Below are positions 22,879 to 41,241 of a DNA stretch of 64,000 nt, one piece after another. The notes beneath the pieces were generated by a model that saw only the letters and a list, made by a program, of their open reading frames with translations, searched no databases and was not told the DNA's origin. Origin of the DNA: Candidatus Magasanikiibacteriota bacterium (GTDB taxonomy: Bacteria > Patescibacteriota > Patescibacteriia > Magasanikbacterales > GWA2-37-8). Both the position numbers and the translations under genes were made by a program. The stretch lies in contig JAHFHX010000003.1 in NCBI GenBank assembly GCA_023246655.1, positions 24,875-88,874 on the forward strand. Direction: 5' to 3'. The stretch's first letter is position 1; every line of letters begins with the position of its first letter.

Positions 22879-24120
22879 TTAAACCCTAGTCTGAGCAATG
22901 CTTTCCCCTGCCACTCGCCCAGTGGCCCAAGAGGCTTGGAGGTTGAAACCACCGGTAAAACCATCAACATTCAAAATTTCTCCAGCAAGGTAAAGGCCGG
23001 GGCACAGCTTGGATTCCATGGTCCGCGGATCAACTTGGGAAAGTTCAACGCCACCCGCGGTAACAAACTCATCCCCCGCACCACGCGCAACCGCATGGAG
23101 CGGCAAATGCTTAACCCATTCCCCAGTCTTTTGTACTTCTTGACGAGTAATTTCCGCGTTCTTTTTTTCAATGGGAATACCAACTTCTTGGCAAATTATT
23201 TCGGATAAAGACAACGGAACAAAATGTTGTAAAATATTTTTAAAACTTTTTTTAGGATTGGCTTGTAACAACTGTTGAAGAGTAATAATAAACCTGTCCA
23301 TTGTAATTTCCGGAACAAAATCGATGAAGATAGCGAGTGGTTTCGCCGGACCAAAATTTTGAAAAGCAGTTAAGGACGAAAGCGCAAACACTGCCGGACC
23401 GCTGATACCGGTGTGGGTAAATAAAAATGCACCGGTGAAAGTATTAGGCTTAGGACAATCGGCTGAGATGTTAGCTTTTATAAATGACACTCCGGAGAGC
23501 GCTCGTGGCCATTTTTCTTTGGTGATAAATGAATGCAGGCTTGGTGCGAGCTCCGTAATATGGTGACCAAGCGATTCGGCAAGCGTATAGCCATCACCAG
23601 TTGAGCCAGTGTGGCGATAGGCCTGCCCACCGAGCGCGAGCACGACGCGATCGACGGTGAGTGGCGGTTGATTTTGGCACATCACAAAAAATTCTTTACC
23701 CTGACGCGTGATGCTTTTTACATTATGTTTGGTAAGCACCTGAACTCCGGAATGAACAAAAATTTTGGTGAAAACATTTACAATATCTTTACCGTCATCA
23801 GAGACCGGAAATACCCGTAAATCTTTTTCACACTTGAGAGGTATTCCATGTTCCTCAAACCACGCTCGGACAGCGGCCGGAGAGAAACGATGGAGTGCTG
23901 AAATGAGAAATTTTTTTCCGCGCGGGTATTTGCTGAGCGCAATTTTTATATCCTCTACCCCCGTGGTTACGTTGCAACGCCCCCCGCCGGAAATAATTAC
24001 TTTTTTACCGAGCGAATCATTTTTTTCCAATAAAAAAAGTTCCGTTTCCGGATTATTTTCCAGTATCGTGGCCGCACACATCATGCCAGCCGCGCCAGCG
24101 CCCACAATTGCTACGCGCAT
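22879..24120 (-). CDS. NAD(P)/FAD-dependent oxidoreductase, HI0933/BaiN-like flavoprotein
   Basis: Dinucleotide-binding motif MRVAIVGAGAAGMMCA, plus GGGRCNVT, which is typical of the HI0933 family. Confidence 0.8.
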   Translation of the reverse strand: MRVAIVGAGAAGMMCAATILENNPETELFLLEKNDSLGKKVIISGGGRCNVTTGVEDIKIALSKYPRGKKFLISALHRFSPAAVRAWFEEHGIPLKCEKDLRVFPVSDDGKDIVNVFTKIFVHSGVQVLTKHNVKSITRQGKEFFVMCQNQPPLTVDRVVLALGGQAYRHTGSTGDGYTLAESLGHHITELAPSLHSFITKEKWPRALSGVSFIKANISADCPKPNTFTGAFLFTHTGISGPAVFALSSLTAFQNFGPAKPLAIFIDFVPEITMDRFIITLQQLLQANPKKSFKNILQHFVPLSLSEIICQEVGIPIEKKNAEITRQEVQKTGEWVKHLPLHAVARGAGDEFVTAGGVELSQVDPRTMESKLCPGLYLAGEILNVDGFTGGFNLQASWATGRVAGESIAQTRV

Positions 24121-24377
24121 ACAATAGGCTTCATCATTTTAATCAATGCTAATTTTTCCGCTCGTGAGAGCTTCTTGATCTCCACCTCTCGTTTACGCGC
24201 AGCCGAGATGCCATGAAACACCTCAGAATAAACGAGCCTAACCGGCCGCCGCACTCGGGTATATTTGGCGCCGGCCGTGGTTGTATTATGCGCGTGAATT
24301 CGTTTCGTAATATTTTTGGCAGAGCCAGTGTAGAGTGTTTGGTCTGCGCATTCGAGAATATAAACAGTGTGAAACAT
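24111..24377 (-). CDS. GIY-YIG nuclease family protein (YhbQ-like)
   Basis: GIY-YIG core YILECADQTLYTGSAKNITKRIHAHN. 88 aa. Overlaps the upstream gene by 10 nt. Confidence 0.75.
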   Translation of the reverse strand: MFHTVYILECADQTLYTGSAKNITKRIHAHNTTTAGAKYTRVRRPVRLVYSEVFHGISAARKREVEIKKLSRAEKLALIKMMKPIVCA

Positions 24378-24536
24378 AATTTAATGTACCTGATAGAATC
24401 AACTCTATCCCTCTTTTACATAAAAATCAACTCTATGGTACTACTATAAAAATGCTTGGATTTGTCAAACAGCCGAAAAATGGTACCATGGTATTCTATG
24501 CAAATTCCTTACCGAAAACCAGGCAAATTTAGCCAA

Positions 24537-24998
24537 ATGAAAATCGATCCTCTCGTTACGGAGAAAAAATATCAGGAACTTAACGCCAAGTTAGAAAAAT
24601 TAAAAAATATGAGCCAACCACAAGCAGCCGCCGAAGTGGCCAGACTTGCTGAACTAGGTGATTTTTCAGAAAATGCCGAATATCAAATTGCTAAAGGCCG
24701 TTTGCGAGGAATTAATAATTCGATTCTCCGATTAGAACACCAGCTACATCAGGCAATTATTATCCGCCCACTAAAACAAACGGATACAGTGAAAATTGGA
24801 CACACCGTAACCGTTGAACGGAATGGCAAGCAAAACACTTATCAGCTACTCGGCTCCTCTGAAACAGATCCACAGAAGGGAATCATTTCTCATAACTCCC
24901 CCCTTGGGGGGGCTCTCATGGGGAGGATGGTTGGTGAGATTATTGCTGTAAAATTAGCTGACAAGGAAGTTGACTATAAGATTGTTAAGATTAAGTAA
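24537..24998 (+). CDS. greA: transcription elongation factor GreA
   Basis: Motif LTEKKYQELNAKLEKLK...ARLAELGDFSENAEYQIAKGRL. The likely true start is the MKIDPL codon at 24537; the track extends to 24456. Confidence 0.85.
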   Translation: MKIDPLVTEKKYQELNAKLEKLKNMSQPQAAAEVARLAELGDFSENAEYQIAKGRLRGINNSILRLEHQLHQAIIIRPLKQTDTVKIGHTVTVERNGKQNTYQLLGSSETDPQKGIISHNSPLGGALMGRMVGEIIAVKLADKEVDYKIVKIK

Positions 24999-25009
24999 AA
25001 AAAGTAAAG

Positions 25010-25081
25010 TGTCCCCATGAGGAATTGAACCTCAATCCTGGGCTTCGGAGGCCCATATTTTATCCGTTAAACTATGGGGAC
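25010..25081 (-). tRNA. tRNA-Arg, anticodon CCG
   Basis: Cloverleaf folded by hand. Acceptor gtcccca / tggggac, anticodon loop ctCCGaa, T-loop ttcaatt, discriminator A, no encoded CCA. Overlaps the femAB stop by 1 nt. Confidence 0.7.
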
Positions 25082-26085
25082 TAAAATAATCGTCGTAACC
25101 ACCGCAGCGCTTGATACATCTTATATCTGACCGGCGAAATAATCAAATCAAACGTACCCGGGTCTTCAGCTACTGTCCCGCCAAACCCAAGTTTAAATCT
25201 GGTCATGCGAGCGTACTGATGTTTCAAATTATATTGATATCTTTCATTTCTATCACTGTGAACTGTGCTTGGCGCAATTCCAAAAAAATCATACTGACTG
25301 TATCCCAACTTTTTGCCCAACTGAATCCCTTCCCACTGTATAAGATGTGAGGCCATCAATTGTCGAGAGTCGTGATCTGAAGCACCAAAAAGATATGTCA
25401 ACGTATCTCCAAAACCAACCAACACCGCGGCGGCCACCGGTTGCTCATTATAATAAATCGTAATCTGGTGTGTTAATGGCGAAGCTAAAACTGCCTGATA
25501 ATGTTCTCTCGGATGGAGACGAAATCCATCGCGCTCGGCGGTCTTATGACTCAATTTCCAAAAACTGTCAAAATCTTTTAGTCTTTCAATCTTCAACTCT
25601 TTCTTCTGTGCTAACCGAATATTATATCGAGTTTTTTCGTGCATGTTGGCGAGGAGCTCGTCATTAGATTTGCTGAGATCAAGAATGGTAGTGGCACGGG
25701 GGGTGAGGTCGATGGATTTGTTAATTAACAATGAACAACTATCAATTAACAAATGTGATGGCTCAACTCTAAACAAAATAATTTTTCGAGCCAAAAAATA
25801 ATCCTTAAAACATCCCCAAACACTCGTTAATTGTTCTTTATTAATTGTTAATTTCGCCACCGGCCCAGCGGGACAAAACCCATACCTCATACCAAACGGC
25901 AACTTAGTATACACTACCTGCGCCTGCGCAACGATTTCGCTACCATCACTCACCCGCAATCGTTCAACAAATTTTCCCTCACTGTGCAAAATCTCCCCCC
26001 ATTCCCACGACTGTAAAAATGACCCGTTATGCTCGGTAAGCCAGGAATTCCAAGTTTTTTTATCATGAGCTAGATGGATATCCAT
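25081..26085 (-). CDS. FemAB-family peptidoglycan interpeptide-bridge peptidyltransferase
   Basis: N-terminus WNSWLTEHNGSFLQSWEWGEIL and overall FemX-like layout. 334 aa. Confidence 0.75.
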   Translation of the reverse strand: MDIHLAHDKKTWNSWLTEHNGSFLQSWEWGEILHSEGKFVERLRVSDGSEIVAQAQVVYTKLPFGMRYGFCPAGPVAKLTINKEQLTSVWGCFKDYFLARKIILFRVEPSHLLIDSCSLLINKSIDLTPRATTILDLSKSNDELLANMHEKTRYNIRLAQKKELKIERLKDFDSFWKLSHKTAERDGFRLHPREHYQAVLASPLTHQITIYYNEQPVAAAVLVGFGDTLTYLFGASDHDSRQLMASHLIQWEGIQLGKKLGYSQYDFFGIAPSTVHSDRNERYQYNLKHQYARMTRFKLGFGGTVAEDPGTFDLIISPVRYKMYQALRWLRRLF

Positions 26086-26123
26086 AACTTTATGGACTTT
26101 CGACTTTATAAACTTTATAGACT
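26086..26123. repeat. phased GACTTTAYR repeat block immediately upstream of the femAB start codon
   Basis: Sequence aactttatggactttcgactttataaactttatagact. Confidence 0.8.
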
Positions 26124-26897
26124 AGTCGCCAGATAACTGGCGACCACCGCCGCCGTCTCCGCCCTGAGTGTCAACGGCCCAAGGGAGCGAATGAGACAGT
26201 CAGTCTTTTCCGCAGCCGCTCGTTCTGCTTTGGACCAACCACCCTCTGGTCCAACAAACACAGCAATTGATTGCGAGACCTCTCTTCCCGTTCTCTCCTC
26301 TGCGGAGGAGAGAAGGAATCGTTCGCGCCCTCTCCTTTGCAAAGGAGAGGGCAGGGTGAGATCTCGTTCAGGCACAAATTGAGTATCGGTAAAATCACAA
26401 AAAATCTTAATCTCATTCTCAATCTTTAAAGCGTCACCTAACTTGATCGGTTCTCCAAATTCCGGCACCACCGCGCGCCCACACTGTTCACTGGCTTCTT
26501 TCATAATCCGTTCAAGACGGGCCCGATTCAGTCCGGTCTTCACGATATGCTCAGTAATTATTGGTACAACCTTCACCACTCCTACCTCCGTGGCTTTCTG
26601 AACCACCCACTCAAAATTATCTCCTTTAAGGATTGCACAATACAACGTCACCGGTCGTAAAGTATTTAGTATTTGGTACTTAGTATGTGGGGTCGCCAGA
26701 ATCTCAATTTCGATCTTAGTCTTATCCATCTTCACGATCTTTGCAGTCTTATTTTCACCCTTTCCATCGCTTAAGAGTATTTCTTCGTCTAGCTTCAACT
26801 TCAAAACCTCCCGCCACTGGTGCACAAGGTCGGGCTTACTGACGGTGAGTGAAGGTTGCGATAAATCACTATCAATGATAAAACGGTGACGACGCAT
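26115..26897 (-). CDS. rsmE: 16S rRNA (uracil1498-N3)-methyltransferase RsmE, carrying an in-frame palindromic insertion
   Basis: RsmE N-terminus MRRHRFII, and a VGPEGGWS knot motif. Contains an extra segment PSPLQRRGRERFLLSSAEERTGRE. Confidence 0.8.
   Translation of the reverse strand: MRRHRFIIDSDLSQPSLTVSKPDLVHQWREVLKLKLDEEILLSDGKGENKTAKIVKMDKTKIEIEILATPHTKYQILNTLRPVTLYCAILKGDNFEWVVQKATEVGVVKVVPIITEHIVKTGLNRARLERIMKEASEQCGRAVVPEFGEPIKLGDALKIENEIKIFCDFTDTQFVPERDLTLPSPLQRRGRERFLLSSAEERTGREVSQSIAVFVGPEGGWSKAERAAAEKTDCLIRSLGPLTLRAETAAVVASYLATSL
26285..26355. repeat. palindromic repeat element, family B (paired hairpins ctctcctctgcggaggagag and ccctctcctttgcaaaggagaggg), inside the rsmE coding sequence
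   Basis: Two perfect palindromes separated by gaatcgttcgcg. A homologous element lies in sucC at 45505-45625. Confidence 0.75.
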
Positions 26898-26946
26898 ACG
26901 CCTCCAGTGTACTCCCCGATTCCCCTTCCGTCAACGCGGCTAACCC

Positions 26947-26975
26947 TTGCCAAAAAACAAGATATGTAGTATAAT
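26947..26975 (+). promoter_or_regulatory. sigma70-type promoter TTGCCA-17 bp-TATAAT for the rpmF-nusB-rnc cluster
   Basis: ttgcca at 26947-26952, a 17-nt spacer, then tataat at 26970-26975. Confidence 0.55.
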
Positions 26976-27035
26976 AACCACACTTTTGGTAACTACACCC
27001 TAGTTACTATTTACTTTTTACTGTTTACTAATTCT

Positions 27036-27230
27036 ATGGGTTTACCTGGACATCGCCGCACCTCTGGTGATAAACGACGTAATCATAACCATCTTGCTCT
27101 CAAAGAAATGGCTATTAATAACTGCCCAAAATGCGGCAAAGCCAGGCTTCCACATCGCGTCTGCGCCTTCTGTGGAACATACCGAGGGCGACAAGTCGTA
27201 AAAGTTAAGATGGCCAAAACAAAAAAATAG
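27036..27230 (+). CDS. rpmF: 50S ribosomal protein L32 (bL32)
   Basis: HRRTSGDKRRNHNHL...CPKCGKARLPHRVCAFCGTYRGRQV matches the L32 zinc-ribbon pattern. Confidence 0.8.
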   Translation: MGLPGHRRTSGDKRRNHNHLALKEMAINNCPKCGKARLPHRVCAFCGTYRGRQVVKVKMAKTKK

Positions 27231-27318
27231 ACCTAAACAATAAGTTATAGGTGCTAAGCAGTGAACCAATTATTTTAGCTTAGAACTGAGTACTTACGTG
27301 CTTAGTACTAAACACACT

Positions 27319-27777
27319 ATGCCCAACCGTCACCTCGCCCGCTCCATTGCCATGCAATCGCTCTTTGAATGGGATTTTCGTGGCAACCCTACCGCCGCCT
27401 TACCAGCAATTGTAAAACATAATCTAGAAGAATTTGCTCCGGGCCTCAAAGATACTGAGTTTGCCCAAAAACTTATTGACGGGGTAATGGACCATTTACC
27501 AGAGATAGACAGCGTGATTAGCACCTATGCGCCCAGCTGGCCGATTAGCCAAATTACCATCGTTGATCGAAATATCCTGCGCCTTGGTGTATATGAATTA
27601 AAAATCAACAATGACGTGCCTCCCAAAGTGGCTATTAACGAGGCTATTGAACTCGCCAAAACTTTTGGCGGGCCCTCCTCCGGCAAATTTGTTAATGGTG
27701 TTTTAGGGTCGATGTATAATGATCTCGTGAAAGAAGAACCTGAAATAACCAATAAACAAACAGTTAAAGAAGATTAA
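27319..27777 (+). CDS. nusB: transcription antitermination factor NusB
   Basis: Motif [17 protein letters not shown]. The track start at 27298 is a GTG; an ATG start at 27319 is more likely. Confidence 0.85.
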
Positions 27778-27819
27778 AATTTTTATCTTCTATTTCATCG
27801 GATAACGCCTAACGTAAAA

Positions 27820-27868
27820 CGCGTAACCTGTTTAACCAAGTTATACGTTTCACGTTCCACGTTACGCG
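27820..27868 (+). promoter_or_regulatory. stem-loop ending 1 nt before the rnc start codon (candidate RNase III autoregulatory hairpin)
   Basis: 8-bp stem cgcgtaac (27820-27827) / gttacgcg (27861-27868). An alternative pairing is aacgtaaaacg / cgtttcacgtt. Related sequence occurs at 9388-9432. Confidence 0.35.
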
Positions 27869-28654
27869 ATGTATCGATCTATGTCACTCGCCTACAATTC
27901 CCTTCCCGAAATTGCCGAAAAAAATTTTCCAAGCCTCGAGGAAAAAATTGGTATCACTTTCAAAAAACCCGAATACCTCATCCAAGCCTTTGTCCATCGC
28001 TCATATTTAAATGAGCACCACGATTTTCCCCTTGGACAGAATGAGCGTTTAGAATTCTTAGGCGATGCCGTACTAGAACTTATTGTTACTGAATTTCTCT
28101 TTGATGAATATGGAAATCCGGAGGGCGAACTCACCAACTGGCGTGCTGCCCTCGTAAACGCCATCATGCTTTCCAAAATTGCCTACGAAATTGGCATGGA
28201 GCCCTTCCTGTTTCTCTCTCACGGCGAAGCTAAAGATACGGGCACTAAGGCACGAGATTATATCATGGCCAATGCTATTGAAGCTCTCATTGGAGCAATT
28301 TATCTTGACCTCGGTTACCCGATGGCCCAACAATTTGTGACTCGGTGGGTACTCACCAAGCTCCCAGAAGTGCTGGAACAAGGTCTTTACCTTGATGCGA
28401 AAAGTCGATTCCAAGAAGCGGCCCAGGAACTTTTAGGTATTACACCCACTTATCGGGTACTACACGAAGAAGGACCAGATCATGCCAAGAATTTTCGTGT
28501 TGGTATCTTTCTTGATAAAGAGCTGGTAGCAACTGGTGAAGGAACCAGCAAGCAAGAAGCCCAGACCCAGGCGGCCGAGGCGGCCGTGAAAATAAAAGGT
28601 TGGAAAGGGCCGCATATTAATATTGTAAAACGACAAACCGGAGACCCGATATAA
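27869..28654 (+). CDS. rnc: ribonuclease III
   Basis: Catalytic signature ERLEFLGDAVLELIVTEFLF, and a C-terminal dsRNA-binding domain. Confidence 0.9.
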   Translation: MYRSMSLAYNSLPEIAEKNFPSLEEKIGITFKKPEYLIQAFVHRSYLNEHHDFPLGQNERLEFLGDAVLELIVTEFLFDEYGNPEGELTNWRAALVNAIMLSKIAYEIGMEPFLFLSHGEAKDTGTKARDYIMANAIEALIGAIYLDLGYPMAQQFVTRWVLTKLPEVLEQGLYLDAKSRFQEAAQELLGITPTYRVLHEEGPDHAKNFRVGIFLDKELVATGEGTSKQEAQTQAAEAAVKIKGWKGPHINIVKRQTGDPI

Positions 28655-28656
28655 CC

Positions 28657-28747
28657 AGTCCGTAAAGTCAAAAGTTTGTAAAGTCCGTAAAGTGACGCTT
28701 GACCAACATTTTACAGACTTTATGGACTTTTGACTTTATAAACTTTC
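28657..28747. repeat. repeat module upstream of tRNA-Lys: agtccgtaaagtcaaaagtttgtaaagtccgtaaagt, then an inverted GACTTTAYR block
   Basis: A 37-bp block is duplicated exactly at 28840-28876. The two halves of the module form a quasi-palindrome. Confidence 0.8.
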
Positions 28748-28758
28748 TACTAATCACT

Positions 28759-28831
28759 GGATCGGTAGCTCAGCTGGTAGAGCAGGGGCCTCTTAAGCCC
28801 AAGGTCCCGGGTTCGATCCCCGGCCGATCCA
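28759..28831 (+). tRNA. tRNA-Lys, anticodon CTT
   Basis: Cloverleaf folded by hand. Acceptor ggatcgg / ccgatcc, D-arm gctcagctggtagagc, anticodon loop ctCTTaa, T-arm ccgggttcgatccccgg. Confidence 0.85.
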
Positions 28832-28839
28832 CTAATGAT

Positions 28840-28930
28840 AGTCCGTAAAGTCAAAAGTTTGTAAAGTCCGTAAAGTCACAATGCGTTAAAACTTTATGAC
28901 TTTATGACTTTCGACTTTATGGACTTTTTT
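28840..28930. repeat. second copy of the repeat module, upstream of tRNA-Arg
   Basis: The 37-bp direct repeat of 28657-28693, then actttatgactttatgactttcgactttatggacttt. Confidence 0.8.
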
Positions 28931-28988
28931 TGCGCCCGTCGTTCCCGCCACAGGCGGGCAGGCAACGGATCATCTGGCTACTACCAAT

Positions 28989-29060
28989 GCTCCCGTAGTT
29001 CAATGGATAGAATATTAGGCTTCGAACCTAAAGATAGGGGTTCGATTCCCTTCGGGAGCA
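28989..29060 (+). tRNA. tRNA-Arg, anticodon TCG
   Basis: Cloverleaf folded by hand. Acceptor gctcccg / cgggagc, anticodon stem ttagg / cctaa, anticodon loop ctTCGaa, T-loop ttcgatt. Confidence 0.7.
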
Positions 29061-29309
29061 CTGGCGATAGCAAGATTAGCAAACAGTATGAACAAACAAT
29101 TCTTGACCTGTGCATAACTTTGTTTGACTCTATTTATCTTTTTTTTATTTCCCTATATACTAATTAATAGGTCGAGGAAAATTTTTTACATCAATGCTTG
29201 TCATGTAAAAAGTTACTTCCAAAATTTTTTCTCGCGTTCGCGAGGTTAGAAAAAATTTGTATCTCTAACGCAACTCTTGAGCGTTAGGTCAAGACAGGAG
29301 GTGTTAAGT

Positions 29310-29387
29310 ATGATGAAGAAAAAAAAGATGGGTGGTAAGAAGAAAATGGCCAAAAAGAAAATGGCCAAAAAGAAAAAGAAGCGATAG
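29310..29387 (+). CDS. lysine-rich micro-protein, 25 aa (MMKKKKMGGKKKMAKKKMAKKKKKR)
   Basis: AGGAGG at 29296-29301, 8 nt upstream of the ATG. The TAG stop is followed by a strong terminator. Confidence 0.55.
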   Translation: MMKKKKMGGKKKMAKKKMAKKKKKR

Positions 29388-29395
29388 TGCTGAAT

Positions 29396-29430
29396 AAAAA
29401 ATCCCCGAATATGACGGGGATTTTTATTTT
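29396..29430. terminator. bidirectional rho-independent terminator
   Basis: Stem atccccg / cggggat with a 7-nt loop. Flanked by AAAAAA upstream and TTTTTATTTT downstream, so it can terminate both the micro-ORF and the convergent PHP gene. Confidence 0.75.
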
Positions 29431-29506
29431 ATAGAACTTCATAGGTCGTTTCATGCCTATAGCACGGCCAACGAGAGGCAAAGCAACAAATAGACCTTCG
29501 GCTCTA

Positions 29507-30898
29507 TCATTCAAACAACTGCGATTGTTTTGGTTTGCCCACCTTGGCATCGGGAAAAGGATCAACGACCCCATACTGGCCATCAAACCCAGGCACAATC
29601 TTTACCTTACCAACGCGCATATTCTGTATCCCAAGGGCAATATTTTTATCACTCACCGCCCGTTCAATTTCGGGTAAAGGAGAATGAAGTAAGATATTAA
29701 ATTCACTCCCTACCGCCGGTACGAGCCTTCGATATTCTATCTCTACCTTTTTACTTTTCTTCCCAGTCTCAAAACTTGCCGCGATAATCTCACGAAGAGG
29801 AACGATGTGGCGGTGAGGAATAAATTTTTCTAGTAGAATATCTTTCTCCAGGCGATCCGCCAAATCGTCCACGCGGTACAACACGCCGACCGTGAGTTTC
29901 TTCTTGCATACTGGGCAAATTTCTTTGTTTCGTTTGGTTTCAGCAGGAGTAGAGGAGAACTTACACTCTCTGTGACCGTCAAAATGATACATACCTTCTT
30001 CCGGATAAAATTCAATTGTATACAAAAACTTCTTTCGGTCACCCGTTTTTAAAATTCGGCGAATCTCGCCATACGTAATCTCAGTCTCAAACTGAAACAC
30101 ATTCGCCTCACGCCCTAAATTGTCCAGGCTATGCGCGTCAGAATTAGACACTAACACAATTTTATCAAGCTGGCTAAGCCGCCGGTTCATCGGTGGGTCA
30201 CTCGATAGCCCCGTCTCAATTGCAAAAATATGAGGTGTTAATTCTTCAAAACATTCTTCTAATGAATTATAGCCTGACTTTGAGCCAAACACTGCAAACC
30301 ATGGTGTCCAGGCGTGAGCGGGAATAACCATCATCCGCTCATCAAGCTCTAAACATATTTGGAGAACCTCCTTCCCCGAAAGTCCAATAATCGGTCGCCC
30401 ATCAGCCTTCAAGTTCGCCCCGCGATTTTCTAATTCCTCATTAAACCGTTTGGCAACTTCCAAACTCGGCGCAAAAATAAGTAAATGCAACCGCCTCACC
30501 TTATCCTTGTGTTTGTAAATACAAGAAATTTCCGTACCAAAAATAAATCTCACCGGCGTTGTCATTCCGAGCACATTCGGCAAGCTCAGTGTAAACTCCG
30601 TCGAGGAATCCATTTCACCCAAACGACCAAGGGATTTCTCCACTCCGCTTCGCCCTGTACCATACGGTACTGGGCTTCGCTCTGGTCGAAATGATAATTG
30701 ATAAGTGCCCGTCTTTCCAATCTCCACCAGATTCTCTTCCAGATGTTCCATCCACTTTGGATGCGTAAAATCCCCTGTGGCCACGAGTTGTATCCCTTTT
30801 TCCTGACAGGCTTTCACAATCTGCGGAATCTCAAGCAAAGGCGAGCAGGCTCGCGCATATTTAGAGTGGATGTGAAAATCAGCGATGATCTCGATCAT
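29507..30898 (-). CDS. PHP-domain protein of the TIGR00375 / EndoQ-like family, carrying an in-frame repeat insertion
   Basis: N-terminal PHP motif DFHIHSKYARACSP, and a C-terminal zinc ribbon CPVCKKKL. Extra segment RPERSPVPYGTGRSGVEKSLGRLGEMDSSTEFTLSLPNVLGMTTP. Confidence 0.55.
   Translation of the reverse strand: MIEIIADFHIHSKYARACSPLLEIPQIVKACQEKGIQLVATGDFTHPKWMEHLEENLVEIGKTGTYQLSFRPERSPVPYGTGRSGVEKSLGRLGEMDSSTEFTLSLPNVLGMTTPVRFIFGTEISCIYKHKDKVRRLHLLIFAPSLEVAKRFNEELENRGANLKADGRPIIGLSGKEVLQICLELDERMMVIPAHAWTPWFAVFGSKSGYNSLEECFEELTPHIFAIETGLSSDPPMNRRLSQLDKIVLVSNSDAHSLDNLGREANVFQFETEITYGEIRRILKTGDRKKFLYTIEFYPEEGMYHFDGHRECKFSSTPAETKRNKEICPVCKKKLTVGVLYRVDDLADRLEKDILLEKFIPHRHIVPLREIIAASFETGKKSKKVEIEYRRLVPAVGSEFNILLHSPLPEIERAVSDKNIALGIQNMRVGKVKIVPGFDGQYGVVDPFPDAKVGKPKQSQLFE
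30561..30697. repeat. family A-type palindromic element inserted in frame inside the PHP-domain gene
   Basis: Sequence tgtcattccgagcacattcggcaagctc...ggcttcgctctggtcgaaatgata, the same subtype as the intergenic copy at 30910-31005. Confidence 0.7.
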
Positions 30899-30909
30899 AA
30901 TATATGAAA

Positions 30910-31005
30910 CGTCATTCTGAGTGAAACGAAGAATCTTCTACTTACGCCACAATCACCACACGACTCGCATAAAAGGAAGATTCTTCGCTGGCGCTCTGAA
31001 TGACA
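30910..31005. repeat. family A-type palindromic element, intergenic, between the PHP gene start and the livF stop
   Basis: Runs from gtcattctgagtgaaacgaagaatcttc to gaagattcttcgctggcgctctgaatgaca. Confidence 0.75.
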
Positions 31006-31013
31006 AGAAAAAA

Positions 31014-31742
31014 TTACTCCAGCTTCCCTACAAACACCTGCTTCATAATAACACTATTCTTAAGAAGGCTGCAATAATCATATGCTACAATCTCACCCTG
31101 CACCATAACATACCCATAATCCGCAATGTCCATCAAACTCTTAATATTGTGCTCCACAATTAAAACCGTCGTCTTAAATGTATCCCTAATCTCACGAATT
31201 TTTTCAAACACTTCCTTGACGAGTTTTGGGGAAAGGCCAAGCGATGGCTCATCCATGAGGAGGAGCTGGGGAGAACTCATGAGCGCACGCCCAATAGCGA
31301 GCATTTGTTGCTCACCACCCGAAAGGGCAAATGCCAATTGCCGCTCCTTTTCAAGGAGTACGGGAAATTGCTGGTAAACGGTTGTCAACCGGTTAGTTAC
31401 TTCAGTCCGATTTTTTAGATGATGCGCGCCGAGCAATAAATTATCTCGAACGCTCAGCGTGCCAAAATTAATTTTGCCTTGCGCCACGTAAGCAACGCCG
31501 AGTTCAAGAAGTTGGTGCGCCGGCCACCCGGTAATTTCCACGCCCTCAAACCAAATCTGACCTGAGGTAATATTTGTTAAATTAAAAATAGATCTAAGGA
31601 GTGTTGACTTACCTGCACCATTCGGGCCCATGATAATAGAAACGGTGCCCGATTGCAATTCTAAGCTAACGTCCTTAAGCACAGGAAGATCGGCGTAGCC
31701 AGCGTTTAAATTAGAAATTTTGAGCATAACGTTTAATTCCAA
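31014..31742 (-). CDS. livF: branched-chain amino acid ABC transporter ATP-binding protein LivF
   Basis: Walker A GPNGAGKSTLLRSI, the LSGGEQQMLAIGRAL signature, and a LivF-type length of 242 aa. Confidence 0.85.
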   Translation of the reverse strand: MELNVMLKISNLNAGYADLPVLKDVSLELQSGTVSIIMGPNGAGKSTLLRSIFNLTNITSGQIWFEGVEITGWPAHQLLELGVAYVAQGKINFGTLSVRDNLLLGAHHLKNRTEVTNRLTTVYQQFPVLLEKERQLAFALSGGEQQMLAIGRALMSSPQLLLMDEPSLGLSPKLVKEVFEKIREIRDTFKTTVLIVEHNIKSLMDIADYGYVMVQGEIVAYDYCSLLKNSVIMKQVFVGKLE

Positions 31743-31829
31743 AGTGCCTAATTTCTAATGTCTAATATAATTTCCAATACTAAACCTGAACTTTTACCTT
31801 ATGGCATTATATTAGACATTAAAAATTTA

Positions 31830-32558
31830 TCATTTCCCCAAATACGCCTCCATCACCTTTGGATCACTAAGCACCTCATTTGGTGTGCCCGCTGCCACTA
31901 CCATCCCCGCATCCAAACAAATTACCCGGTCTGACAGTCGCCGCACGAAATTCATATCATGATCAATAAGGAGAACCGTTTCTCCACGCGCTTTAAGATC
32001 CAAAAGCAACTGCTCAATTTTTTCCTGAATCACTTTGTTAACCCCAGCGACTGGTTCGTCGAGCATGAGGAGTTGATGTCCCCGCCGGAGCGCCATTGCA
32101 ATTTGGAGAAGTTTACGCTGGCCGTAACTTAAATCGCTCACTGGCGTATCAAGCGTCCGTTTAATTCCAAACTGTTCAAGGATTGCATCATATTCATCAC
32201 AATGAACTCGCTCGCGCCGCCATATATTCTGCCATAATTTTGTGTCGGCATTGTCCGTCGCCATCATCAGATGATCCAAAATCGTAAGATAGCGAAATAA
32301 CCGTGCGTGCTGAAAGGTACGACTCATCCCGCGGTCAGCACGTTCATGAGGTAAAAGTTGCGTTACATCATCACCATTCAAAAGTACCCGGCCCATATCC
32401 GGCTCTACAAAACCAGCGATAATATCAAACAGCGTGGTTTTACCCGCGCCATTGGGACCAATAAGAGCAGTGACTTTATTTTTTTCTACTACAAAATTAG
32501 ACCCGCGAATCGCTTGCACACCTCCAAATGACTTGGTAATGTTTTCCACCTTGAGCAT
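31830..32558 (-). CDS. livG: branched-chain amino acid ABC transporter ATP-binding protein LivG
   Basis: Walker A GPNGAGKTTLFDII and the LSYGQRKLLQIAMAL signature. Confidence 0.85.
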   Translation of the reverse strand: MLKVENITKSFGGVQAIRGSNFVVEKNKVTALIGPNGAGKTTLFDIIAGFVEPDMGRVLLNGDDVTQLLPHERADRGMSRTFQHARLFRYLTILDHLMMATDNADTKLWQNIWRRERVHCDEYDAILEQFGIKRTLDTPVSDLSYGQRKLLQIAMALRRGHQLLMLDEPVAGVNKVIQEKIEQLLLDLKARGETVLLIDHDMNFVRRLSDRVICLDAGMVVAAGTPNEVLSDPKVMEAYLGK

Positions 32559-32606
32559 AATACTAATACACGAACGATCGTTTAGTATTTTTCAATCACA
32601 TGAGAG

Positions 32607-33479
32607 TTAGTCAATATCCACCTTCCCCAAAATTCCCCGCGGACGAAACAGTAAAATTAAAATCAGAATCACACTATATATCATCTGCCGCAGCGGCCCT
32701 ACCGCCTCTGGGGTAATGGGGAGAAACCGTAAAATCTCGGGGATAGCTAAAATAATAAATCCACCCAGAATACTACCAGTGAGAGAAGCTAAACCGCCGG
32801 TAATCACAATCGTCAGCACAATAATAATATCGGAGAGATAAAATGAAGTTGGATCAATAAACTGAATAAAATGGGCAAATAAACTCCCTGCCAACCCAGT
32901 AAAAAAAGCTGAGACAACAAAACACTGGTACTTCAGGCGATACACGTCTTTACCCAGCGCCGAGGCCCCCACACTATCATCACGCACGGCTTCGAGAAGC
33001 CGCCCATAGCGTGACCGGGTTAAACGATATAAAAAAAATAATGATCCAATGGTTACCACTGTTGTCAAAAGAAGAAATGGCCCACCACTTTTAATGGTCA
33101 GACCAAAAATCACTGGCCGGGGAATTCCCGGAATGCCTAACGAGCCCCGGGTAAGGCTTATCCAATTTTGTGCCAACGCCACGACCAAAAAATTAAACCC
33201 GAGCGTTACAAAGGCAAAATAATCACCACGTAATTTCTGAGTCACCACGGTAAGGAAGAGTCGGGAGAGGCTGCTGAGGAGTCCCGCCATAAAAAATGCG
33301 GGCATAAAAGGCACACCAACATCCTTGGTGAGAATCGCTGAAGTATAGGCTCCGATACCAAAAAGCGCGACATGTCCTAAACTAAGGAGCCCGGTGAATC
33401 CAATCGCCAAATTCAAACTCGCCGCTACTATGATGTAGATAAGAATGAGCGTAAAAACTTGAACAAGATATGCAGTCAT
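32607..33479 (-). CDS. livM: branched-chain amino acid ABC transporter permease LivM
   Basis: Polytopic permease. The start is moved to MTAYLV so that it abuts livH. Confidence 0.8.
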   Translation of the reverse strand: MTAYLVQVFTLILIYIIVAASLNLAIGFTGLLSLGHVALFGIGAYTSAILTKDVGVPFMPAFFMAGLLSSLSRLFLTVVTQKLRGDYFAFVTLGFNFLVVALAQNWISLTRGSLGIPGIPRPVIFGLTIKSGGPFLLLTTVVTIGSLFFLYRLTRSRYGRLLEAVRDDSVGASALGKDVYRLKYQCFVVSAFFTGLAGSLFAHFIQFIDPTSFYLSDIIIVLTIVITGGLASLTGSILGGFIILAIPEILRFLPITPEAVGPLRQMIYSVILILILLFRPRGILGKVDID

Positions 33480-33480
33480 A

Positions 33481-34374
33481 CTACTCTCGCATTCCCTTTT
33501 CCACACCTAAAATACCATTCTGACGAAACACTAAAAACAAAAACAGGACCACAAAAGGAATAGCTTCTTTATACCCTGATGGAATGACCCAAAGCGTTAC
33601 ATTCTCGGCAAAACCAATTAAATAACTGCCTAGAATACTTCCGGGCATTGATCCAATACCGCCCACTACTGAACTGGTAAAACTCACTAACGCAAAATTA
33701 ACCCCCATCCGCGGTTCAACATTACGCTCCAAGGCAATAAGAATGGCTGCACATCCGGCAATCGCTGAAGCAATTACAAAACTCAAGGCTTGAAAACGAT
33801 CGGTATTAATACCCGTGAGACGAGCTAATTCCACATTATCCGCTACTGCTCGAAGCTTTTTCCCGGTAGGGCTCAACTTAATAAATATCCAAAATACCAA
33901 CAGCAAAACAACAGAACAAGCGATAATAATGAGTTGAAGTGGCGTTACCAGAACTCCCCCCACATTAATTCCTGCTTGTACTTCAATAAATTCAAGTGTC
34001 TTAACATCTGAACCAAATAGTATCTGGGCGAACCCTTCAAAAAATAACAGTACCCCAGCACTTGCAATAAGCATAATAAGATTCCCAGCCCGGCGACGGC
34101 GAAGCGGCCGATAGAGAAAAATATACATTGCCAAACCAAGCACCATGGCGGTGATCACCGTCAAAATGCTACTCAGATAAAAATTCAATCCGAGCAACGA
34201 GTATAATCCATACAAGGCATAGGCCGCTGACAACAGTACTGCCCCATGCGCCAAATGCCAAAACCGATTGGTGGCGTACACCAACGACATCCCTGAAGCT
34301 GTGAGAGAATAAATTGCCCCAGCTATGAGACCATCCATAAATAGCTGGGGCAATATCGCAGTTGATAACTGCAT
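33481..34374 (-). CDS. livH: branched-chain amino acid ABC transporter permease LivH
   Basis: Polytopic permease, 297 aa, in an operon with livKMGF. Confidence 0.8.
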   Translation of the reverse strand: MQLSTAILPQLFMDGLIAGAIYSLTASGMSLVYATNRFWHLAHGAVLLSAAYALYGLYSLLGLNFYLSSILTVITAMVLGLAMYIFLYRPLRRRRAGNLIMLIASAGVLLFFEGFAQILFGSDVKTLEFIEVQAGINVGGVLVTPLQLIIIACSVVLLLVFWIFIKLSPTGKKLRAVADNVELARLTGINTDRFQALSFVIASAIAGCAAILIALERNVEPRMGVNFALVSFTSSVVGGIGSMPGSILGSYLIGFAENVTLWVIPSGYKEAIPFVVLFLFLVFRQNGILGVEKGMRE

Positions 34375-34392
34375 AGAAACTTAAACGTTTTC

Positions 34393-35541
34393 TTACTTCA
34401 TCACTTCGGCCTTACCATACTTAACAACTTTCACATCGTACTGAGCAAACGTTGGATCACCGTTACCGTCAAAGGTAATTGGTCCAGCTTCTCCGGGATA
34501 ATCTTTCACTCCATACAATGCATCCTTAAGCTTCGTGGCATCAGGACCAGCCTGCTTCATAAGACTAGATACTAACTTCACATTATCGTACGTGCGCGGA
34601 ACACATACTGTTGGGTTGCCGCCCTTATCTTTAAGTTTTGCCTTCCAGGCATCACTCGTATTGGCAGAATAGACGGTATACATCATTCCTTCGGCAAAGG
34701 AATTAGCATGGATTTTGCTATCATCCCACGCATCGCCCCCCAGCATTGGCAAATTTAAACCCAATTCCTTGGCTTGCTTCAAGCCGGCAATCGAAGCCTC
34801 CGTATAACCAACAAAGTATAAGAGTTCTGCGCCACTGCCTTTAACTTTAGTCAACTGGGCTTTAAGATCACGAGCATCTTGTGCATAATCCTGCGACAGA
34901 ACAATTTCCCCACCCAGTTGCTTAAAGGCAGCCTCAAAAGCATTCTTAATGCCAGTACCATAATCACCTAGAACTGCTAAAGTCGCTACTTTCTTTTTTC
35001 CTAATTTATTATACACATATTCCGCAGCAAATTTACCCTGGTGCAAATCGGAAGGATAACTGCGGAAAACATATTCTCCGGCTGTGGTGATACTCGGCGC
35101 GGATGAGCAACCCGAAATTAAGAGTACTTTATTCTGCTCGGCCACCGGGGCGACTGCTGTTGTTTCACCGGAACACAAACCACCAAAAATAACTGGCACC
35201 TTATCAACATTAATTAATTTATTGCCGGCTTGCGCAGCATCTTTTGGGTTGCATTTGCCGTCTTCAACTACCAATTCTAACTTCCGACCACCAACCCCAC
35301 CAGCGGCATTGATCTCATCAACCGCCAATTGTGCTCCTTTGAGCGTGTCCTGCCCAACACTGGCTGCATCGCCCGTAAGTGGACCAAGCCAACCTACTTT
35401 AATTGGCCCGCTCTCCTCTCTTGAGGGCAAATAAGAACCAGTGGTAACTTGCTTCTCTCCGGGAAGCGACGAACACCCTGCTCCAACCAGGAGCATAGCC
35501 CCGGCTACAGCAACTAGGAATCCTGCTTTCTTCATACACAA
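34393..35541 (-). CDS. livK: branched-chain amino acid ABC transporter substrate-binding lipoprotein (LivK/LivJ-like)
   Basis: Lipoprotein signal LVAVAGAMLLVGAGCSS, and a periplasmic-binding-protein type I fold. Confidence 0.8.
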   Translation of the reverse strand: MCMKKAGFLVAVAGAMLLVGAGCSSLPGEKQVTTGSYLPSREESGPIKVGWLGPLTGDAASVGQDTLKGAQLAVDEINAAGGVGGRKLELVVEDGKCNPKDAAQAGNKLINVDKVPVIFGGLCSGETTAVAPVAEQNKVLLISGCSSAPSITTAGEYVFRSYPSDLHQGKFAAEYVYNKLGKKKVATLAVLGDYGTGIKNAFEAAFKQLGGEIVLSQDYAQDARDLKAQLTKVKGSGAELLYFVGYTEASIAGLKQAKELGLNLPMLGGDAWDDSKIHANSFAEGMMYTVYSANTSDAWKAKLKDKGGNPTVCVPRTYDNVKLVSSLMKQAGPDATKLKDALYGVKDYPGEAGPITFDGNGDPTFAQYDVKVVKYGKAEVMK

Positions 35542-35630
35542 TTATAATTAATACTAAAAATTTAAGCTAACTTATTATATAATAACAAAAAAATTATGTC
35601 TAATGGGTTACCCACAAAAATTTTAGTTAA

Positions 35631-36299
35631 TTATAGGCTATACTTTGACCATTCAGCAGGAACTTTTATGAGTATCGTTTGGTAACTCAACAAAGTCGCT
35701 TGTTGGAATGTTAAAGATGTTGCTGCCAATGCGATTGCTTGATGAGACGAATCCTGAGAGGCTCCATATTTTACATCCCCCACTATCGGACACCCCATTG
35801 CCGCGAGCTGTGCCCGAATTTGATGCGACCGACCGGTACCTAATTTAATTTTAAGGAGAGAGTGTTTTCCATCTGATTTGACAACTTCATAACTGAGCTC
35901 GGCTCGCTGAGAATCTGCGAACTCTGAACTATGAACTGTGGTCCGGTTTGCCTTCTCATTCTTCGTGAGCCAATGCACCAGCGTTTCTCGCTCCTTCTTG
36001 GGTCGCCCCTCCACCACCGCGTGATATATTTTTTCAATGGTATGATTGCGAAATTGCTCCGATAATCGTGCTGCACCCTTGCTGGTTTTCGCAAACAAAA
36101 TAATTCCTTGAACATTACGATCCAAACGATGTAATAACCCCAAAAATACCTTTCCCGTTTTGTGATATCTTTGTTTCAGATAATATTTCACTTCATCCAT
36201 TAATGTCGGATCGCCCGTAATGTCCCCCTGGACCAAAACACCGGCTGGCTTGTAGACGGCGATAAGGTGATTGTCTTCGTATAAAATTTGTAAAGCCAT
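35631..36299 (-). CDS. rluA: RluA-family pseudouridine synthase
   Basis: Catalytic-Asp motif HRLDRNVQGIILFAKT, and ILYEDNHLIAVYKPAGVLVQ. Confidence 0.85.
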   Translation of the reverse strand: MALQILYEDNHLIAVYKPAGVLVQGDITGDPTLMDEVKYYLKQRYHKTGKVFLGLLHRLDRNVQGIILFAKTSKGAARLSEQFRNHTIEKIYHAVVEGRPKKERETLVHWLTKNEKANRTTVHSSEFADSQRAELSYEVVKSDGKHSLLKIKLGTGRSHQIRAQLAAMGCPIVGDVKYGASQDSSHQAIALAATSLTFQQATLLSYQTILIKVPAEWSKYSL

Positions 36300-36306
36300 A
36301 ATGAGC

Positions 36307-36428
36307 TGTCATTGCGAGGAGGCCCGATTCGCATCGGGATGATGTGGCAATCTCCTTGTTTACAAAATCAAATCTCCCATAAGCAGGGGGATTGCTTCGT
36401 TGTTCGTTCCTCACTCCTCGCAATGACA
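36307..36428. repeat. palindromic element, subtype tgtcattgcgaggag...ctcgcaatgaca, intergenic
   Basis: Shares termini and internal blocks (ggcaatctcc, ggggattgcttcg) with the element inside sucD at 44525-44616. Confidence 0.8.
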
Positions 36429-36430
36429 CT

Positions 36431-37318
36431 TCAAACACTCCACCGCGCAAAAATTCCTGCCGGCAGCAATCGCTCACTATCCTGTTCCGCAATCGTTAAT
36501 TCGCCAATCTCAATCTCTCCCCCAAAATCCTTCATTAAATCACCCAAACTATTTTTATACGCCACCGCCGAATACCCCGAAGCATAGCCATTGATTAAAA
36601 AAAATAATGGCTTCTCGCTCAAAACCTGTTTACACAAATCGAGCAGTTCCAAAAAATGCTCCTCAATTTTCCATACTTCCCCGCCCGGCCCATGCCCAAA
36701 CGCCGGCGGATCCATAATAATACCGTCATATTTTCGGCCGCGTTTAATTTCTCGTTTCACAAACGTCCGTGCGTCATCAAGTATCCATCTGATTGGTTTA
36801 TCCTTGAGCCCACTCAACTCCGCATTATCTCGCCCCCACCCAATCGCCACTTTTGATCCATCGAGGTGCACCACTTCCGCCCCTGCTTGAGCGGCAGCCA
36901 ACGTTGCCCCGCCGGTATATCCAAACAAATTCAAAACACTCGTCGGACTTTCTGACTTTATAGACTTTCGACTTTCGACTTGCTGGAGAACCCAACCCCA
37001 ATTCCCCGCCTGCTCGGGAAACACTCCCGTATGCTTAAACGCCGACAATTTAATCCAAAATTTGAGACCCGCCAACTCAATCGGCCAGCGCTCCGGCAAT
37101 TTTTTCCGTGTCTGCCACTCAGCACTTTTAGAATCACGCTTAAAATAAGCATCCGCTTTATTCCATTCACTTTCTGACAAGCGTTTTTTCCACAACGCTT
37201 GTGGGTCTGGCCGCGCAATAACGGCTTCGCCATATCGCTCCAACTTTTCGCCGTCGCCGCTATCGAGGAGCGAATATCCTTTGTTAGTTTTTGTTTCTAA
37301 AATTGAATACGTAATCAT
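36431..37318 (-). CDS. class I SAM-dependent RNA methyltransferase (RlmI/YccW-like)
   Basis: Motif I VLNLFGYTGGATLAAAQAGA and motif IV DGIIMDPPAFG. Contains an in-frame phased-repeat segment at 36945-36990. Confidence 0.65.
   Translation of the reverse strand: MITYSILETKTNKGYSLLDSGDGEKLERYGEAVIARPDPQALWKKRLSESEWNKADAYFKRDSKSAEWQTRKKLPERWPIELAGLKFWIKLSAFKHTGVFPEQAGNWGWVLQQVESRKSIKSESPTSVLNLFGYTGGATLAAAQAGAEVVHLDGSKVAIGWGRDNAELSGLKDKPIRWILDDARTFVKREIKRGRKYDGIIMDPPAFGHGPGGEVWKIEEHFLELLDLCKQVLSEKPLFFLINGYASGYSAVAYKNSLGDLMKDFGGEIEIGELTIAEQDSERLLPAGIFARWSV
36945..36990. repeat. GACTTTAYR-type repeat block inside a coding sequence
   Basis: Sequence ctttctgactttatagactttcgactttcgactt, which encodes QQVESRKSIKSESPT. 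Confidence 0.6.
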
Positions 37319-38127
37319 AGCGGACTTTTAATATTTTTTAAACTCGGATTCGTAACGTGCGTATAAATTTGCGTGGTACGAATATTCGCGTGACCAAGCA
37401 ACTCCTGCACAAATCTAACATCAGTTCCGTTTTCGAGCAAGTGCGTGGCAAAACTGTGGCGCAAACTATGGAACGTGGCCGGTTTGATAATTCCGACCCG
37501 GCGCATCGCCTGGTAAAAAACTTTTTGCGCCGTTGCCTCCACTAACCGCCCGCCGCGTTCACTCGCGAACAGATAGTCGCTCCCCTCTTTTCCAACCATG
37601 CATTTTTGTATCTCCGGCGCCAAAACAGCCGAAAATACCGTTAACCGATCTTTTTTACCTTTGCCCTGTCGTACCGTAACTGTTAGTCCGTTCAAATCGA
37701 TATCCTGCACTCTCAATCGCACCGTCTCGCTTACCCGCAAGCCCGCGGCATACGTAATCGCCAAAAGCGTACGATGCTTCAGATTGCTGGTGCAATCAAT
37801 CATCCGTTTAATTTCCTCCCTGCTTAAAACTACCGGCAACCTATTCGCCTGCTTGGGGTGGCGCAATTTAACGTATCCCTCTCTATGATAAATCTGAGTA
37901 AAAAGGTAATTGAACGCGTTAGCATACAAAGAAATAGTCTGGCTCGCCAACCCTTGCTTCTATTTATGATACAAAAATTCCTTAATCTCCTCCACCGACA
38001 ACTCTCGCGGCGGCTTGTGGTAAAAAACATAGATATCCTTTACAACGTGCGTATATGCCTCAATGGTTTTTGGGCTATAGTTGTACAACTTCATCTCACG
38101 TACTATAATATCAAGCAAGTTAGCCAT
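37315..38127 (-). pseudogene. XerC/XerD-like tyrosine recombinase interrupted by an in-frame TAG (37960-37962)
   Basis: The N-terminal 55 aa (MANLLDIIVREMKLYNYSPKTIEAYTHVV...) and the catalytic domain (HSLRHSFATHLLENGTDVRFVQELLGHANIRTTQIYTHV) share one frame, separated by a single TAG. Confidence 0.65.
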
Positions 38128-38316
38128 ATGCCCATAATACTATCATAAGTCAATATAACCTACAAATTGTTGCATACTTTACAACAACACTAGGGATATT
38201 AACGAGTTAAGTGAAATAAAATTTACACTTTTTATTTTTTTGTGATTGAGTGATTGGCAAGGGGGGGCGAATGTGACTGGTTTTGTATCATATTTCTAAG
38301 CAATTTTATAATTAGT

Positions 38317-39033
38317 ATGTCAAACCCCTGGGATGCCTTGAGTAAAAAATTTAATAGTCGTAAAAATATAACAGAGATTAATCCTGATGCGGCAGATAAC
38401 ATCCTCATTGCCTGGCCGCCAATGATCAATCAGATTAATAAACATTTCGAAAAAAATATTTCCATACTTGATTATGGTTGTGGCACGGGAGCATTGAGCG
38501 AAAAACTTTGGAGTTTGGGGTATAGGAGAATTGTTAGCATGGATGGTTCACAAGCAATGATCAGCATTGCCAACAACAATTACGGTGACCATATTAGCTT
38601 TGTGCGGGGTACGGCTGAAACCAAACTAATCACAGAGCTAGTCGATGTCATTATCGGTAGTATGGTGTTTCAATTTATTGAGGATATCGAAACGTTATTT
38701 AAAAACTTGATAGATATTCTAAAACCCCAAGGTTTACTCATTTTCGCAGTTCACAATCCCGAAGTTGTGAAAACCGCCATTGAGAGAAAACTCACACTCT
38801 TTACAGACTTTCAATCAGCAGAAAATCCAAGGAAGGGTTTAATACATTTGGGGACCGCTTCAATTCCGATATTTATCCGAACCACCGCTGAGTACGACGA
38901 AATAACTTGTCGTTTAGGACTCATTAAAGTATTTGAAAATCGCCCACCTTTCACCAAGGAATTTCTCGACAACTACCCCACTGAAGTACCTGACGTTTCA
39001 AATTTTCTTGTTTTAGGCTATACAAAAAAATAA
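38317..39033 (+). CDS. class I SAM-dependent methyltransferase (small-molecule type)
   Basis: Motif I ILDYGCGTGALSEKL. The ATG at 38317 (MSNPWD) is preferred over the track start at 38254. Confidence 0.7.
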   Translation: MSNPWDALSKKFNSRKNITEINPDAADNILIAWPPMINQINKHFEKNISILDYGCGTGALSEKLWSLGYRRIVSMDGSQAMISIANNNYGDHISFVRGTAETKLITELVDVIIGSMVFQFIEDIETLFKNLIDILKPQGLLIFAVHNPEVVKTAIERKLTLFTDFQSAENPRKGLIHLGTASIPIFIRTTAEYDEITCRLGLIKVFENRPPFTKEFLDNYPTEVPDVSNFLVLGYTKK

Positions 39034-41150: not shown

Positions 41151-41241
41151 ATATGATCGAAAGATTAAAAGACTAGAAGGCTAGAAGATTGTGACCGCTC
41201 GCGAATCTCACAAAATCTTATAATCTTTCAATCTTATAATC

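Follow-up and report, generated by a model that had tools for sequence, protein, structure and literature searches.

Rickettsia offers a textbook oddity, the 'selfish' palindromes that lie in frame within its protein genes. The present locus raises the question of whether a repeat of this kind lies inside a nuclease gene of a member of the Patescibacteria. The window, which is the whole stretch of DNA that was analysed (64 kb), holds a PHP-domain gene on the minus strand. A sequence-only reading had placed a palindromic element in frame inside this gene, at 30561-30697. The answer reached here is that the segment is, with good confidence, a palindromic repeat inserted in frame in an endonuclease Q (EndoQ) gene, presumably translated as a tolerated disordered loop and later decayed. 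The gene and the parts of the insert are given below.

29507-30898, minus strand: endonuclease Q (EndoQ) gene, TIGR00375-type PHP-domain nuclease, 463-aa ORF
30695-30709, minus strand: host codons GTYQL, residues 64-68, beta-strand preceding the insert (AF2 strand 66-68, junction alignment)
30560-30696, minus strand: in-frame palindromic repeat element, decayed composite copy, 137 nt, residues 69-113 (SFRPERSPVPYGTGRSGVEKSLGRLGEMDSSTEFTLSLPNVLGMT)
30684-30696, minus strand: decayed opposite end, gene strand TATCATTTCGACC against TGTCATCCCGACC in the orthologs and in the window copy at 47217
30560-30572, plus strand: intact family end TGTCATTCCGAGC, exact match to the 13-nt end; gene strand GCTCGGAATGACA, giving ..LGMT; present at this junction also in the orthologs L087, L081, L084, L085 and L086
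30530-30559, minus strand: host codons TPVRFIFGTE, residues 114-123, post-insert beta-strand, ending in Glu123
Insert region: predicted tryptic peptides, e.g. TGTYQLSFRPER and LGEMDSSTEFTLSLPNVLGMTTPVR

The PHP/EndoQ-like identity proposed for 29507-30898 is borne out by profile and structure comparisons. The ORF matches TIGR00375 with an E-value of 1.8e-48, the profile being aligned only from residue 127 on when the insert is present. The PfuEndoQ structures in the PDB (5zb8/7k30) are matched at E ~1e-48 in two stretches, residues 5-60 and 130-445 (170 bits). Deletion of residues 69-113 in silico yields a single stretch, 5-400 to Pfu 4-380, with 186 bits and an E-value of 1e-53 to 5zb8. The same deletion extends the alignment to the TIGR00375 profile from 70-373 to 2-373, and the score becomes that of an insert-free relative. 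With 174 bits, it does not reach the curated value of 326.6, and insert-free Patescibacteria homologs are also below the equivalog cut-off. An AlphaFold2 model of the window protein, built on a 30-sequence alignment, has a pTM of 0.83 and superposes on 5zb8 with a TM of 0.87 (Foldseek). Sequence and predicted fold match the EndoQ family across all three domains, and the window protein possesses, like PfuEndoQ (5zb8/7k30), a PHP domain, a zinc finger and a C-terminal helical domain.

The crystal-structure paper on PfuEndoQ names the catalytic residues, including the metal ligand Glu76 (PMC5961232). The counterpart of Glu76 in the window protein is Glu123, the invariant metal-binding Glu. The metal-binding and catalytic residues H9, H11, E123, H138, R168, H195, D254 and H256 are present; the Pfu counterparts checked were H8, H10, E76, H84, H139, D193, R114 and H195 together with the four-Cys zinc site. 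The His, His, Glu, His, His, Asp metal ligands of PfuEndoQ are all kept. Three of the four zinc-site Cys have been assigned positions (C312/C328/C331). The metal ligands, Arg168, His256 and the zinc-finger Cys are invariant or nearly so in the family alignment. The EndoQ gene is most likely still working, since the predicted fold and all catalytic residues are kept. Unlike PfuEndoQ, the window protein has a 45-residue, repeat-derived loop at the turn between the strands matching Pfu ~62-76. The insert may affect the activity of EndoQ, because it is near the catalytic Glu in sequence.

The element described in the earlier reading proved correct, its exact ends being one base off on each side (30560-30696, 137 nt). 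Read on the plus strand, the insert has TGTCATTCCGAGC as its beginning (30560) and ...GGTCGAAATGATA as its last bases (30696). Its first two bases on the gene strand complete the codon of Leu68. The gene strand across the insert is T|TA TCA TTT CGA ... CTC GGA ATG ACA, corresponding to SFRPERS...NVLGMT. The reading frame is preserved, as had been claimed: the gene frame is open over residues 69-113, and the other two sense frames contain two stops and one stop, respectively. The decayed end carries three mismatches. RNA folding gave a z-score of -2.1 for the insert (weak) versus -5.6 for the intergenic copy at 30911-31005 (strong hairpin). The EndoQ copy looks old, because one end is decayed and the folding is weak. 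In the AlphaFold2 model, residues 72-113 have a pLDDT <50 and are located between the strands 66-68 and 117-130. Aligned to PfuEndoQ, the junction falls within 'GTFEV|NGVKFILTCE', at a beta-turn eight residues ahead of the catalytic Glu. The Gly/Ser/Pro-rich segment of 45 residues is probably a disordered surface loop, as judged from the model; it would be translated and is presumably neutral.

The intact end of the insert connects it to a dispersed family with inverted ends (TGTCATYCCGAG / CTCGGRATGACA). A search of the 64-kb window, allowing <=2 mismatches to the 13-nt end, yielded 16 matches versus 1.4 expected, and 0/100 shuffles reached 16. The ends pair into ~8 complete copies with a length of 32-139 nt; in total, the family has ~10 copies in the window.

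3836-3930: family copy, paired ends
7980-8011: family copy, paired ends
16419-16557: family copy, paired ends
19965-20012: family copy, paired ends
30911-31005: member of the broader family, intergenic; occupies the spacer that separates EndoQ from the upstream ABC ATPase gene
36307-36428: family copy, paired ends
44525-44616, minus strand: family copy, paired ends; second in-frame element, TGTCATTGCGAG type, 92 nt, inside the CoA-ligase alpha-like gene 43833-44801, encoding VIASDEGAKQSPRQEENGEIAASPSAPRND
47217-47304: family copy, paired ends
60151-60184: half copy at the 3' end of ORF 60174-61160 (minus strand)

The copies are mosaics and not uniform. What they have in common are their outer ends and some internal modules, for example GAGGGATCTCTG / CAGAGATTCCTC. 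BLAST matched the EndoQ insert to the other window copies only through the 13-nt end at 3836-3848. The most similar sequence detected lies in L081 (Candidatus Magasanikbacteria GCA_009694865.1), the closest named relative, where it forms the central module (GATCCCTTGACGTTTGGTGAAATGGATTCTTCGAC) of an element inside the CoA-ligase alpha-like gene. A full-length twin of the insert was not present in any sequence searched. Three metagenome matches to its inner 20-mer were dismissed as chance, all being located in unrelated sequence. The intergenic copy at 30911-31005 had been assigned to the same subtype as the insert. This assignment fails, as BLAST detects no similarity between the two beyond the family end motif; the intergenic copy is, judged by its sequence, of another subfamily. 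A match at 41063 is not a copy. It has two mismatches and lies in a citrate-synthase-like ORF of the same length as its orthologs. An Rfam scan of the window returned three tRNAs only, a family for the element being absent. A literature search with the end motif gave unrelated primer matches only, and the retrieved portions of the literature on CPR MITEs or REPs apparently contain nothing on CPR repeat elements. We could not find the element family in the Rfam and literature searches, and it is apparently undescribed.

Several other structures were observed in the window. The TGA stop (60174-60176) of ORF 60174-61160 falls inside the element end TGTCATCCTGAGC, and the last codons and the stop are repeat-derived. 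The element 47217-47304 spans the boundary of the minus-strand ORFs 47290-48276 and 46854-47258; it contains the stop of the former and the listed TTG start of the latter. A perfect 28-nt inverted repeat (TATAATATAGCCAAAATTATTATATTTT) is located at 54451-54565, with 59 nt between the arms. Intergenic tandem repeats of 8-9 nt (GACTTTAYRGACTTT, CTATTTCT, AATCTT) occur at 8141-8203, 12235-12279, 26078-26122, 28699-28752 and 63208-63252. Further ones are present at 22063-22102, 41997-42052, 25562-25601 and 41204-41251. The region 55828-57025 is unusual in having three long overlapping ORFs of 373-390 aa on both strands.

55828-57000, minus strand: overlapping ORF
55846-57015, plus strand: overlapping ORF
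55904-57025, plus strand: overlapping ORF

An exact look-up of the window protein gave no entry on record. Independent contigs from ENA (sample ERZ27276474) were found through the neighbouring genes. Contig L093 corresponds to window 23114-30857 with 99.97% identity. It is exact over window 30540-30720, which covers the insert and both junctions. Contig L091 corresponds to window 30885-38558 and includes the intergenic copy 30911-31005. Misassembly is an unlikely origin of the insert, because the independent ENA assembly has the insert and both junctions exactly. The possibility raised at the outset, a local misassembly from the adjacent repeat, is further contradicted by the lack of BLAST similarity to that neighbour. 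Among the homologs, P0040 is present with its insert on 9 contigs.

The ends of L093 and L091 are ~30 bases apart (window 30857-30898), and one of these ends coincides with the start of the EndoQ gene, which is palindromic (ATGATCGAGATCAT). The assembly apparently broke at a short hairpin rather than at the repeat elements. A 40-nt direct repeat, 98% identical (28657-28696 / 28840-28879), brackets a tRNA gene. The Logan contig L094 aligns as though lacking one 183-nt unit at the 28657-28879 repeat. The difference reflects a structural variant or else a collapse in the assembly.

28759-28831: tRNA gene
28989-29060: tRNA gene

The loop was followed in an alignment of Patescibacteria sequences only (Magasanik-, Uhr-, Falkow-, Kerfeldbacteria, others), comprising 120 proteins from databases and 80 loci from genomes. 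The GDFTHP..FILGTE segment comprises 40-41 aa in 109/201 homologs versus 82 aa in the window protein. At least five extra residues are found in the loop in 68/201 and at least eight in 57/201. Scanned over the whole protein, >=8 extra residues occur at core columns 69-75 in ~67 sequences versus 7 elsewhere internally. The segment had been expected to be absent from homologs. This holds for 109/201 of them, for PfuEndoQ and for TIGR00375, but many others carry something at this place. Since these other segments are mutually unrelated and consist of repeat DNA, the insertion reading is strengthened and not refuted. On sequence comparison, the EndoQ loop is an insertion hot spot in Patescibacteria, with inserts in about a third of the relatives.

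Several kinds of insert were distinguished in the EndoQ loop. Complete TGTCATCCCGA...TCGGAATGACA elements are present in L087, L081, L084, L085 and L086, and a TGTCATTGCGAG-type element in L056. GC-rich CCCCTCC...GGAGGGG hairpins occupy the loop in L004, L054, L039, L041, L034, L021 and L083, short tandem repeats like AATTCCAAA in L063, L013, L012 and L036. The latter, in frame in the EndoQ loop, resemble the intergenic tandem repeats of the window. Orthologs have only the repeat-derived ends of the insert peptides in common.

An unbroken ORF crosses the insertion site in 80/80 genome loci. At the DNA level, 30/30 inserts have a length divisible by three and contain no stop in the gene frame, and the other frames are open in 12/30 and 11/30, a test that is partly ascertainment-biased as the homologs were recruited via protein similarity. 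Openness of the gene frame is what translation predicts and argues against a removal at the RNA level. Inteins, introns and bypass elements do not describe the inserts, all 30 being in frame and stop-free with the other frames open in ~38%. The window insert gave no intron match in Rfam, and its 45 aa are far below intein size.

The second host gene shows the same pattern. The peptide inserted in the CoA-ligase alpha-like protein (VIASDEGAKQSP...IAASPSAPRND) is flanked by FDTVREALA and NWVAVVYVPP. The standard 29-aa segment is present in 87/120 CoA-ligase homologs. Inserts occur in 33/120, all in one loop and none elsewhere. At the GC|TGTCAT nucleotide junction used in the window, the L081 ortholog has another element, and L082 is empty. 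A presence/absence polymorphism of this insert, considered for two P0003 contigs, was rejected: the 296-aa P0148 is only N-terminally truncated and keeps the insert.

Turnover of the EndoQ inserts was examined on a neighbour-joining tree for which the loop had been masked. The kinds of insert are dispersed over this tree, the nearest relatives often having another insert or none. P0004, the nearest relative of the window EndoQ, contains a GC-hairpin element instead; P0005 and P0006 have no insert in the loop. P0100, the nearest relative of P0043, has a short extension only, and P0040 and P0081 adjoin the insert-free L005. The 5' junction, TAY-MAR-Y | TGTCATCCCGA, is identical in the window, L087, L081, L084, L085 and L086, with TG of the element completing the Leu codon. 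Full TGTCAT elements at this junction are found in three or more separate lineages. L084 and L085/L086 have as their nearest relatives sequences with an empty site or a different insert. A transfer of EndoQ segments between lineages was discarded as cause of the shared junction, the flanking residues tracking the relatives of each lineage. Further family ends are located nearby in the genomes with a full TGTCAT insert and are absent from most other loci. Of the in-frame TGTCAT...ATGACA elements, 8/9 have a length of 2 mod 3, and intergenic copies are mixed in this respect.

Around the nine in-frame copies, no direct repeat >=2 nt indicative of a target-site duplication was detected, and none was consistent around the window copies. 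Upstream, only a Y before TGTCAT and a weak CAAY were visible, without a clear consensus. The empty EndoQ site is of ordinary composition, its AT content being at the 55th percentile within its own gene. The EndoQ insert of L081 (10200-10345) has a nested appearance: over its first 34 nt it equals the window copy 47217, and the module that comes next shares 96% identity with the start of copy 30911. Repeat modules are thus near-identical across genomes whose proteins are ~75% identical.

The following course of events is proposed. A small non-coding palindromic repeat with TGTCATYCCGAG inverted ends and inner hairpin modules would have entered the EndoQ gene at the tip of a PHP-domain beta-hairpin. 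Its length preserved the frame and it brought no stop; hence the element would be transcribed and translated within the enzyme. As a tolerated passenger without a function of its own, it would leave the enzyme fold intact. The copy would afterwards have decayed, by mutation of one end and weakening of the folding. The hot spot would mainly reflect frequent repeat insertions on which selection then acts as a filter, the turn being nearly the sole place in the protein that tolerates extra residues; some site preference may contribute.

A repeat copy 215 bases away (30911-31005) and the nearby breaks of the independent contigs (30857/30885) might suggest that the neighbouring repeat was copied into EndoQ by misassembly. 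Such an artefact is scarcely credible, given an insert dissimilar from this neighbour in BLAST, its exact presence in L093 (30540-30720), same-junction elements in orthologs of other samples and the preserved frame. It is very improbable as well that the segment is a common type of loop extension confined to this lineage, or belongs to a pseudogene in decay, and resembles a repeat by chance. The degenerate state of the copy (three mismatches at one end, fold z -2.1) and the missing full-length twin in the sequences searched would fit this explanation. However, the 13-nt family end is exact, intact elements occupy the same junction in L087 and L081, and the inner module is common to another element. 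The loci of the orthologs hold further family ends, so their inserts are repeat copies. Nor does the gene resemble a pseudogene, with its ORF intact, the invariant residues kept and a confident fold prediction. The claim of a palindromic repeat in frame inside EndoQ therefore stands on the dispersed family, the absence of the segment from the standard protein, the same-junction elements of orthologs and the independent assembly.

More weight is due to a site-selective insertion or replacement, in which a mechanism recognises the site or the ends of the resident element and the hot spot reflects targeting. This explanation is possible, and it is considered the less probable one. Joins at the same nucleotide in at least three lineages, together with the shared junction in the CoA-ligase, are hard to explain by selection for tolerance alone. 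The identical 5' junction in the window and five orthologs (L087, L081, L084, L085, L086) favours targeting, as do the empty or differently filled relatives nearest L084 and L085/L086 with flanking residues of their own lineage. The differing CoA-ligase elements of the window and L081 at GC|TGTCAT, L082 being empty, and the 2 mod 3 length of 8/9 in-frame elements point in the same direction. Against targeting, a Y before TGTCAT was the only conserved feature detected upstream, and neither a target duplication nor an unusual composition of the empty site was found. In the EndoQ loop, the codons at which L056 and the other repeat kinds are joined differ slightly. An appearance of targeting could also arise if selection favoured a single benign frame and position, and the tree is a neighbour-joining tree only. 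A broader proposal appears doubtful, namely that the EndoQ turn and a corresponding loop of one or more other proteins are preferred landing or exchange sites, where a site-selective mechanism would put different palindrome families at the same nucleotide in independent lineages, forming a rapidly renewing disordered loop adjacent to the active site. Improbable is a selected hypervariable loop, for which repeats would be the raw material and diversity beside the active site an advantage, e.g. in escaping inhibitors of uracil/hypoxanthine repair. Turnover at the loop is indeed very high relative to the remaining protein, and the loop is eight residues from the catalytic Glu123. Yet 109/201 homologs manage with no insert, the peptides are alike only in their repeat-derived ends and the loop is predicted to be disordered. 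The same pattern in a metabolic enzyme, the CoA-ligase alpha-like protein, points to a general genomic process.

With a tolerated repeat insertion as the preferred reading, the phenomenon known from Rickettsia now appears in Patescibacteria (CPR), whose genomes are likewise very small. The observations extend the Rickettsia picture: one loop per protein is affected in ~30% of lineages, by several repeat kinds and with a turnover faster than protein divergence. The inserts provide a natural map of protein sites tolerating 10-45 extra residues. They also contain a warning for annotation, as many odd low-complexity segments of CPR proteins may be repeat DNA. Dozens of independent junctions are available for working out the insertion mechanism.

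Among known repeats, REPs carry a GTAG or CGTC head (PMC3733652). Like REP/BIME, the present elements are short imperfect palindromes in mosaic units, dense in intergenic spacers. Unlike REP/BIME, which are extragenic by definition, they have TGTCAT ends and at least two window copies inside coding sequence. Bacterial MITEs (ERIC, BOX, Correia, Nezha) are small, have terminal inverted repeats and many copies, and are mostly intergenic with occasional in-frame fusions, as is the case here. Terminal inverted repeats, copies <300 bp, lack of a transposase ORF and the multicopy state agree with MITEs; the missing target-site duplication and the mosaic structure from short hairpin modules do not.

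Rickettsia palindromic elements (RPEs) are many-copy palindromic repeats that are located in frame in unrelated genes, translated and fold-compatible (PMC10969869). The EndoQ-type element is likewise small (~100-150 bp for RPEs and these elements), palindromic, multicopy and in frame in unrelated housekeeping genes. A fold-compatible in-frame palindrome is represented in the window by the EndoQ and the CoA-ligase case. The host is a member of the Patescibacteria and not Rickettsia, and the ends differ. One loop struck repeatedly by several repeat kinds is a feature of the Patescibacteria that the review does not mention for RPEs (PMC10969869). Each RPE family encodes a conserved peptide, whereas the insert peptides of Patescibacteria are not conserved between orthologs. 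The latter argues for an analogy to RPEs rather than membership among them.
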